A DNA stretch of 64,000 nt from Escherichia coli (lineage in GTDB: Bacteria > Pseudomonadota > Gammaproteobacteria > Enterobacterales > Enterobacteriaceae). The notes under the pieces are model-generated. The model was not told where the DNA came from. It saw only the letters and a program-made list of their open reading frames with translations, and made no database searches. Position 1 is the stretch's first letter. Each line of letters opens with the position of its first letter. A program made the position numbers and the translations under genes. Below are positions 47,358 through 47,500 of the stretch, in pieces. The stretch lies in assembly GCF_003334785.1 (NCBI RefSeq), contig NZ_QOWV01000001.1; one strand, 5' to 3'.

Positions 47358-47375
47358 TTGCAAAGCGGATGCCAG
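47358..47375 (-). promoter_or_regulatory. sigma54 (-24/-12) promoter of rutA
   Basis: Reverse complement reads CTGGCATCCGCTTTGCAA, i.e. TGGCAT-N5-TTGCA, about 30 nt upstream of the rutA ATG. Confidence 0.7.
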
Positions 47376-47438
47376 TTTTTAAAAAGTTAATGTTATTAAT
47401 CTGTTAACATTACGTTATCTAAAATATCTGGTAAAAAG

Positions 47439-47454
47439 TGGACTAAACGGTCAA
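47439..47454. promoter_or_regulatory. candidate RutR operator
   Basis: TGGACTAAACGGTCAA matches 13 of 16 positions of the TTGACCAnnTGGTCAA RutR consensus as I recall it. Confidence 0.4.
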
Positions 47455-47460
47455 AACAGT

Positions 47461-47500
47461 TGCACATAAAACATGCATCTGTGCGCGATGAGAGTGCAGA
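47461..47500. promoter_or_regulatory. candidate NtrC enhancer sites for the rut sigma54 promoter
   Basis: Near-palindromes TGCACATAAAACATGCA and TGTGCGCGATGAGAGTGCA about 100 nt upstream of the -24/-12 element. Confidence 0.4.

Follow-up and report, generated by a model that had tools for sequence, protein, structure and literature searches.

The spacer between the divergently transcribed rutR and rutA genes of Escherichia coli raises the question of how expression of the rutABCDEFG operon is controlled from a short stretch of intergenic DNA, and how the control elements within it act together. The analysis described here covers a window of 64 kb, the whole stretch of DNA under study, which belongs to a K-12-type E. 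coli and in which positions 47358-47500 fall within the rutR-rutA intergenic region. We hold with high confidence that this region is the enhancer-dependent promoter of rutABCDEFG combined with an operator that is common to rutR. The control region as such is already known, each of its components (sigma-54, NtrC and RutR) having been described in the literature on E. coli K-12. Novelty is limited to a candidate IHF site, to the way in which RutR represses a sigma-54 promoter and to a two-box variant of the region outside the Enterobacteriaceae.

Layout of the rutR-rutA spacer and the start of rutA

A segment of 701 bp around the promoter region occurs in 5421 of 5426 complete E. coli genomes, in many of them with 100% identity, and colinearity of the window with the K-12-type strain ER1709 extends from mgsA past putA. 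Gene coordinates were taken from the RefSeq annotation of the identical DNA (Table 1), which also locates rutB to rutG downstream of rutA. Read along the minus strand from 47500 to 47330, the elements follow one another in the order NtrC site TGCACTCTCATCGCGCA, NtrC site TGCATGTTTTATGTGCA, RutR box TTGACCGTTTAGTCCA, AT-rich spacer, sigma-54 promoter CTGGCATCCGCTTTGCA and the ATG at 47330, and on the opposite strand the rutR leader crosses both the RutR box and the NtrC sites. An earlier note, made from the bare sequence, had named these three classes of motif (sigma-54, NtrC-like and RutR-like), and all of them are present where it had placed them, accurate to the base.

Table 1. Genes and control elements of the rutR-rutA region, numbered by position in the 64-kb window except in the last row; distances in the last column are relative to the predicted rutA +1
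Feature	Coordinates	Strand	Description
rutA CDS	46182..47273	-	Pyrimidine utilization protein A, 363 aa; first gene of rutABCDEFG (RefSeq)
rutA 5' leader	47274..47345	-	About 75 nt to the RefSeq start; includes the old start ATG 47330
Predicted rutA transcription start	47346..47349, taken as ~47348	-	12 nt downstream of the C of the -12 GC
Sigma-54 (RpoN) core TGGCATCCGCTTTGCA	47374-47359	-	-24 TGGCAT, -12 TTGCA; canonical GG-N10-GC spacing
Longer sigma-54 motif CTGGCATCCGCTTTGCA	47375-47359	-	Read from the sequence
IHF-like element TATTAATCTGTTA	47394..47406	+	Predicted; one mismatch to WATCAANNNNTTR; centre -52
RutR operator TGGACTAAACGGTCAA	47439..47454	+	Minus strand reads TTGACCGTTTAGTCCA; centre -98.5
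Proximal NtrC-like enhancer site TGCATGTTTTATGTGCA	47461..47477	-	Centre -121; one mismatch to TGCAC-N7-GTGCA
Distal NtrC-like enhancer site TGCACTCTCATCGCGCA	47482..47498	-	Centre -142; one mismatch to TGCAC-N7-GTGCA
rutR CDS	47561..48199	+	TetR-family repressor; divergent from rutA (RefSeq)
putA	from 48239	-	RefSeq
Longer-spacer loci (L034, L050, L055, L065, L072-L075 and others)	~2290-2400 per locus		Upstream of rutA

The distance between the promoter and rutA depends on which start codon is used. The currently annotated and conserved start is the second codon of a tandem ATG ATG at 47276 and 47273 (minus strand) and lies 86 nt from the -12 element, whereas the ATG at 47330 is the start of an old 382-aa RutA model. 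The earlier description of the sigma-54 element as about 30 nt upstream of rutA holds for this old long start and fails for the RefSeq start. The RefSeq model of 363 aa is supported because the longer starts are not conserved. Residue 1 of the short form is where the alignment of the RutA homologues from 80 genomes begins, the leader between the predicted transcription start and the conserved ATG is anywhere between 30 and 159 nt long in the 80 loci, and an in-frame stop interrupts this interval in 49 of them, one other E. coli strain included. On these grounds and on that of the RefSeq annotation, both the ATG at 47330 and a mechanically called TTG at 47363 were rejected as starts. By inspection, the Shine-Dalgarno-like sequences also favour the short start, with GAGAGG situated 6 nt before the ATG at 47273, whereas AAGGA abuts the ATG at 47330.

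The rutA leader itself is poorly conserved among 76 loci from outside Escherichia. An Rfam scan of 47150-47650 at a permissive E-value returned no match, and the leader therefore contains no known riboswitch or leader RNA. A terminator scan of 47200-47650 gave a single terminator-like hairpin (47311-47327, plus strand), which is weak and is regarded as a chance occurrence. In E. coli KFu015, a strain from river water in Japan, an IS1 element flanked by a target duplication of 9 bp interrupts the rutA leader (positions 782-1549 of locus L082, corresponding to 47320-47328 of the window) and puts about 777 bp between the sigma-54 promoter and rutA.

The sigma-54 promoter and its NtrC enhancer

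Sigma-54 promoters are characterised by a -24 GG and a -12 GC exactly 10 nt apart in the context TGGCAC-N5-TTGCA, and this arrangement is found upstream of rutA. The core reads TGGCAT-CCGCT-TTGCA on the minus strand and is oriented toward rutA. It is the single exact match to TGGCAY-N5-TTGCW within the 64-kb window, which bears out the earlier reading of a TGGCAT-N5-TTGCA element on this strand. In the yccE-agp intergenic region TGGCACCTCTTTTGTT (38885-38900, minus strand) forms a one-mismatch sigma-54-like match that runs antisense into yccE; it has lost the critical GC of the -12 element and is probably non-functional, judging by its sequence.

The core upstream of rutA coincides with a site recovered by several genome-wide approaches. 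Sigma-54 ChIP-seq identified site OS10 with the motif CTGGCATCCGCTTTGCA on the minus strand, assigned it to b1012/rutA and placed it 18 nt from the then-annotated b1012 start (Bonocora et al., PMC4591121). Genomic SELEX with reconstituted RpoN holoenzyme recovered the rutA/rutR spacer with or without NtrC, with a peak for the holoenzyme at 1073268 (PMC8743547). In an array comparison of rpoN deletion with rpoN overexpression, ycdM (rutA) was listed as responsive to rpoN together with the predicted promoter aaacTGGCATCCGCTTTGCAAAcaag, the same predicted site as the core described here (PMC2831329). These published data show that RNA polymerase containing sigma-54 binds to the -24/-12 element at 47374-47359. 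Judging from the geometry of sigma-54 promoters, rutA transcription would start at about 47348, a position that fits the published figure of 18 nt for the distance to the former b1012 start (PMC4591121). A search of the accessible literature found no experimentally mapped rutA transcription start.

An NtrC enhancer typically comprises at least two 17-bp dyads resembling TGCACCAnnnTGGTGCA that share a helical face and are located some 100-150 bp upstream, and a pair of this kind is present upstream of rutA. Both NtrC-like sites are 17-bp palindromes, their centres are 21 bp apart, equivalent to two helical turns, and they lie 87-124 bp upstream of the sigma-54 core. They are the only two matches to TGCAC-N7-GTGCA with at most one mismatch in the 64-kb window and are situated side by side, in keeping with the near-palindromic TGCAC...GTGCA sites that had been noticed earlier some 100 nt further upstream. 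Against the full consensus TGCACCAnnnTGGTGCA the two sites are moderate matches, 10/14 and 9/14.

In nitrogen-starved cells, NtrC ChIP-seq detected a peak of 94-fold enrichment at rutA-G, listed under its old name ycdMLKJIHG, and the same paper cites earlier gene-expression evidence for this operon (PMC4066584). The peak at 1073221-1073301 covers the promoter and early rutA, and the predicted sites are roughly 70-170 bp away from it (PMC4066584). This offset is not counted against the rutA sites because a similar one is seen at glnHPQ, an accepted direct target of NtrC, where the NtrC peak likewise coincides with the coordinate of the sigma-54 motif (tables of PMC4066584 and PMC4591121). By text search, the rutA/rutR spacer was found in the RpoN tables of the genomic SELEX study and not in its table for NtrC alone (PMC8743547). 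Set against the 94-fold peak in vivo, the missing NtrC-alone signal may reflect weak sites that require phosphorylation-dependent cooperativity. No NtrC footprint on the individual rutA sites was found in the accessible literature. In a coculture based on ammonium cross-feeding, in which the nitrogen starvation response is active, rutA is the most upregulated E. coli transcript (bioRxiv 10.1101/262139), and rutA-G is described as dependent on sigma-54 and NtrC and repressed by RutR in reviews and figures (PMC4325133, PMC10891134). Both the occupancy of the region by NtrC and the induction of rutA under nitrogen limitation have been demonstrated experimentally.

Conservation across Enterobacterales and the element at -52

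A scan for RutA with one genome per species yielded 80 loci with 83-99% protein identity from genera including Escherichia, Klebsiella, Enterobacter, Kosakonia, Buttiauxella, Pantoea, Erwinia, Tatumella, Yersinia, Serratia and Rahnella, and in all of them the +1 was placed 12 nt past the C of the GC in the -12 element. Each of the 80 usable loci has an exact TGGCAY-N5-TTGCW on the rutA strand no more than 400 bp from the start codon, and the 5-nt spacer inside it varies freely. Conservation was expressed as identity to the E. coli base among the 76 non-Escherichia loci. The TGCAC half of the distal NtrC site scores 0.94, the GTGCA half of the proximal site 0.99 and the RutR box 0.70, as compared with 0.46 for the sigma-54 spacer and 0.37-0.43 for the flanks. 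The values of 1.00 and 0.97 for the -24 and -12 blocks stem in part from anchoring the alignment on the motif and are therefore partly circular; the independent test is the exact match upstream of rutA in every locus. An alignment of 16 genera displays the same invariant columns. Conservation is thus footprint-like in comparison with the poorly conserved flanks, and this pattern shows that the whole rutA promoter architecture is under purifying selection across Enterobacterales. The conservation of the 80 loci and the published data on sigma-54, NtrC and RutR together support the earlier interpretation of the region as a nitrogen-regulated control of pyrimidine catabolism.

The spacing of the elements follows two patterns. 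The NtrC-like sites are centred at about -142 (-141 to -143) and -121 in the Enterobacteriaceae and at about -151 (-150 to -153) and -130 in the Erwiniaceae, Yersiniaceae and their relatives, and the centre of the RutR box is found at -98.5 in the former and at about -107 (-107.5) in the other families. The spacer between enhancer and promoter is 9-10 bp longer, or about one helical turn, in the Erwiniaceae, the Yersiniaceae, Serratia and Rahnella (Table 1), and the separation of 21 bp between the NtrC sites is kept across genera. Several Erwinia and Serratia loci possess a further RutR box, centred at -88.5, which is also the position of the strongest box in Yersinia; E. coli has only a degenerate remnant there. 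rutR is divergent from rutA in 77 of the 80 loci.

Between the enhancer and the -24 element lies a stretch that resembles the IHF consensus WATCAANNNNTTR, the E. coli copy of which has a T in place of the consensus C. A match with at most one mismatch is centred at exactly -52 in 50 of the 80 loci, nine of them perfect, and almost none occur elsewhere between -100 and -30. The difference of 9-10 bp between families falls upstream of the -52 element, so that its distance to the promoter is fixed and the enhancer is shifted by about one helical turn, as would be predicted for an architectural bend site. The geometry looks constrained because this shift leaves both the -52 element and the 21-bp NtrC spacing unchanged. 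On the strength of this pattern an IHF site at -52 is plausible.

The same bases could instead be part of a divergent sigma-70 promoter of rutR or form an intrinsic bend, a reading that has a considerable chance of being correct and yet falls short of being probable. The IHF-like element overlaps a possible -35 hexamer of the rutR promoter, TTAATC at 47396-47401, which is positioned 18 bp upstream of TAAAAT at 47420-47425, and in a published figure the -35 and -10 elements of rutR precede the RutR box on the rutR strand and so fall in the same interval (PMC4325133). Furthermore, the E. coli copy lacks the consensus C, and no experimental IHF data for the element were found in the accessible literature. 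The comparative evidence points the other way: the positions that are conserved at -52 are those of the IHF consensus (A2, A5 and TT), the match is exact in Yersinia, Serratia and Rahnella, the position of the element is fixed relative to the sigma-54 promoter, and the candidate -10 region of rutR is poorly conserved. In addition, a simple sigma-70 scan gave no match at the -52 interval, and no sigma-70-like promoter reached the scan threshold anywhere in 47200-47650.

RutR and a proposed integration of two signals

RutR operators are 16-bp semi-palindromes of the form TTGACCAnnTGGTCAA that carry the consensus bases at positions 4 and 13 (PMC2475637). The box upstream of rutA agrees with TTGACCAnnTGGTCAA at 11 of 14 consensus positions and both key positions are intact (A4 and T13). 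It is centred at 47446.5, which is -114.5 from the rutR ATG at 47561, and it lies between enhancer and promoter at 6 bp from the proximal NtrC site, confirming the earlier proposal of a RutR-like site between the palindromes and the sigma-54 core. RutR ChIP-chip and gel-shift experiments identified exactly TGGACTAAACGGTCAA, again with an 11/14 match, as the rutA intergenic target at -114.5 (PMC2475637). The box is situated downstream of the rutR transcription start, and a four-base operator-constitutive (Oc) mutation in it abolishes the uracil-sensitive autoregulation of rutR (PMC4325133). The NtrC sites, the RutR site and the promoter of rutAG have been drawn in Figure 1a of a 2024 paper (PMC10891134). 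Binding of RutR to the box, its release by uracil and its effect on rutR have been demonstrated, and the repression of rutA is attributed in the literature to the box at -98.5.

Within gfcD, TTGACCATTTTGTCCA (19748-19763, plus strand) agrees with the RutR consensus in 12 of 14 positions, one more than the rut operator, and is absent from the 20 published RutR ChIP-chip targets (PMC2475637). From its sequence, this site may be either a chance match or an unreported intragenic RutR site.

It is unlikely that the RutR box serves mainly as an autoregulatory operator of rutR with little direct effect on the rutA promoter, which would then be controlled essentially by NtrC alone. The idea draws on the fact that the Oc mutant, the only mutational test found in the accessible literature, was assayed on a rutR-lacZ fusion (PMC4325133), that RutR occupies many binding sites without a transcriptional effect (PMC2475637) and that removal of RutR alone proved insufficient to switch on the rutA promoter in the 2024 study (PMC10891134). 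The last of these observations is at the same time exactly what a model with two signals predicts, in which NtrC is needed besides the release of RutR. According to the literature, RutR represses both wings by way of a single box (PMC4325133), and the distances between the RutR box, the sigma-54 promoter and the NtrC sites are fixed even in loci where the rutR start codon is 100-250 bp further away.

Taken one at a time, the motifs are within chance. In the shuffled 64-kb window 0.41 exact matches to TGGCAY-N5-TTGCW are expected and one is observed, 3.65 matches to TGCAC-N7-GTGCA with at most one mismatch are expected and two are observed, and for the RutR consensus with at most three mismatches the corresponding figures are 2.97 and four. 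As no single motif is significant, the joint arrangement was tested instead, defined as an exact sigma-54 core preceded at a distance of 40-180 bp by two or more NtrC-like sites and accompanied by a RutR-like site. It occurred in none of 2000 first-order Markov shuffles of the window, in which no exact sigma-54 core even had two NtrC-like sites upstream, and its analytic expectation is about 2e-7 per window. In spite of the chance-level counts of the individual motifs, there is next to no probability that they are fortuitous matches in an AT-rich intergenic region devoid of functional sigma-54, NtrC or RutR control, and this explanation is effectively refuted by the rarity of the joint arrangement, by the 80 of 80 loci that keep the elements in place while their flanks diverge and by published sigma-54, NtrC and RutR ChIP data that all map to the rutR-rutA spacer (PMC4591121, PMC4066584, PMC2475637).

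It is proposed that the sigma-54 polymerase bound to the -24/-12 element forms a closed complex that is unable to open by itself. Upon nitrogen limitation, dimers of phosphorylated NtrC would cooperatively occupy the 17-bp sites at -142 and -121, both on the same face of the helix, oligomerise, loop across the AT-rich spacer to reach the polymerase and drive promoter opening at the expense of ATP. The loop would probably be aided by a bend at the conserved IHF-like site at -52. The NtrC and polymerase steps are drawn from general knowledge of NtrC- and sigma-54-dependent promoters such as glnAp2 and glnHp2. A RutR dimer binds to the box at -98.5 and leaves it on binding uracil, and the same box, situated downstream of the rutR start, provides for the uracil-sensitive autoregulation of rutR, as the Oc mutant shows. 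The box is about 60 bp upstream of the polymerase footprint and 6 bp from the proximal NtrC site, which argues against promoter occlusion. The most economical reading is that RutR would interfere with the assembly of NtrC or with the geometry of the loop, and it would most likely act as an anti-activator rather than by excluding polymerase. We put it at only slightly less than an even chance that the published picture of rutAp is incomplete in this sense, with a functional architectural IHF-like site at -52 and with RutR lodged between enhancer and bend, where it acts as an anti-activator. Dual control by NtrC and RutR implies that the operon needs two signals, nitrogen limitation and available pyrimidine, and the failure of RutR removal alone to activate rutA fits this requirement (PMC10891134).

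Compared with the published rutAp of E. coli K-12 (the b1012 operon), there is no substantive difference in the region, as the DNA, the sigma-54 motif, the RutR box and the drawn layout are identical; the present comparison adds a conserved IHF-like element at -52, evidence in favour of the short rutA start and a different layout found in other families. Like glnAp2 and glnHp2, rutAp combines a GG-N10-GC promoter with a pair of 17-bp NtrC sites, located on one face of the helix at a distance of more than 100 bp upstream, and is activated under nitrogen limitation. An IHF site lies between enhancer and promoter at glnHp2. Unlike these two promoters, rutAp has a box for a TetR-family repressor placed between its enhancer and its promoter, a divergent sigma-70 promoter in the same spacer, and NtrC sites that match the consensus less well than those of glnAp2 and glnHp2. 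The P1 promoter of carAB is bound by the same RutR through a 16-bp semi-palindrome, likewise in a manner that is releasable by uracil (PMC4325133, PMC10891134, PMC2475637). At carP1 the box is located at -184.5 and RutR has a positive effect, whereas at rut it is located at -98.5 of a sigma-54 promoter and the effect is negative. The affinity of RutR is slightly lower at the rut box, with a KD of 44 nM as opposed to 28 nM at carP1 (PMC10891134).

Overall, the re-identification of a textbook-type enhancer-dependent promoter from raw sequence has little importance beyond correct annotation. The short rutA start, the candidate IHF site and the two-box variant could nevertheless guide the study of how a TetR-family repressor silences a sigma-54 promoter from -98.
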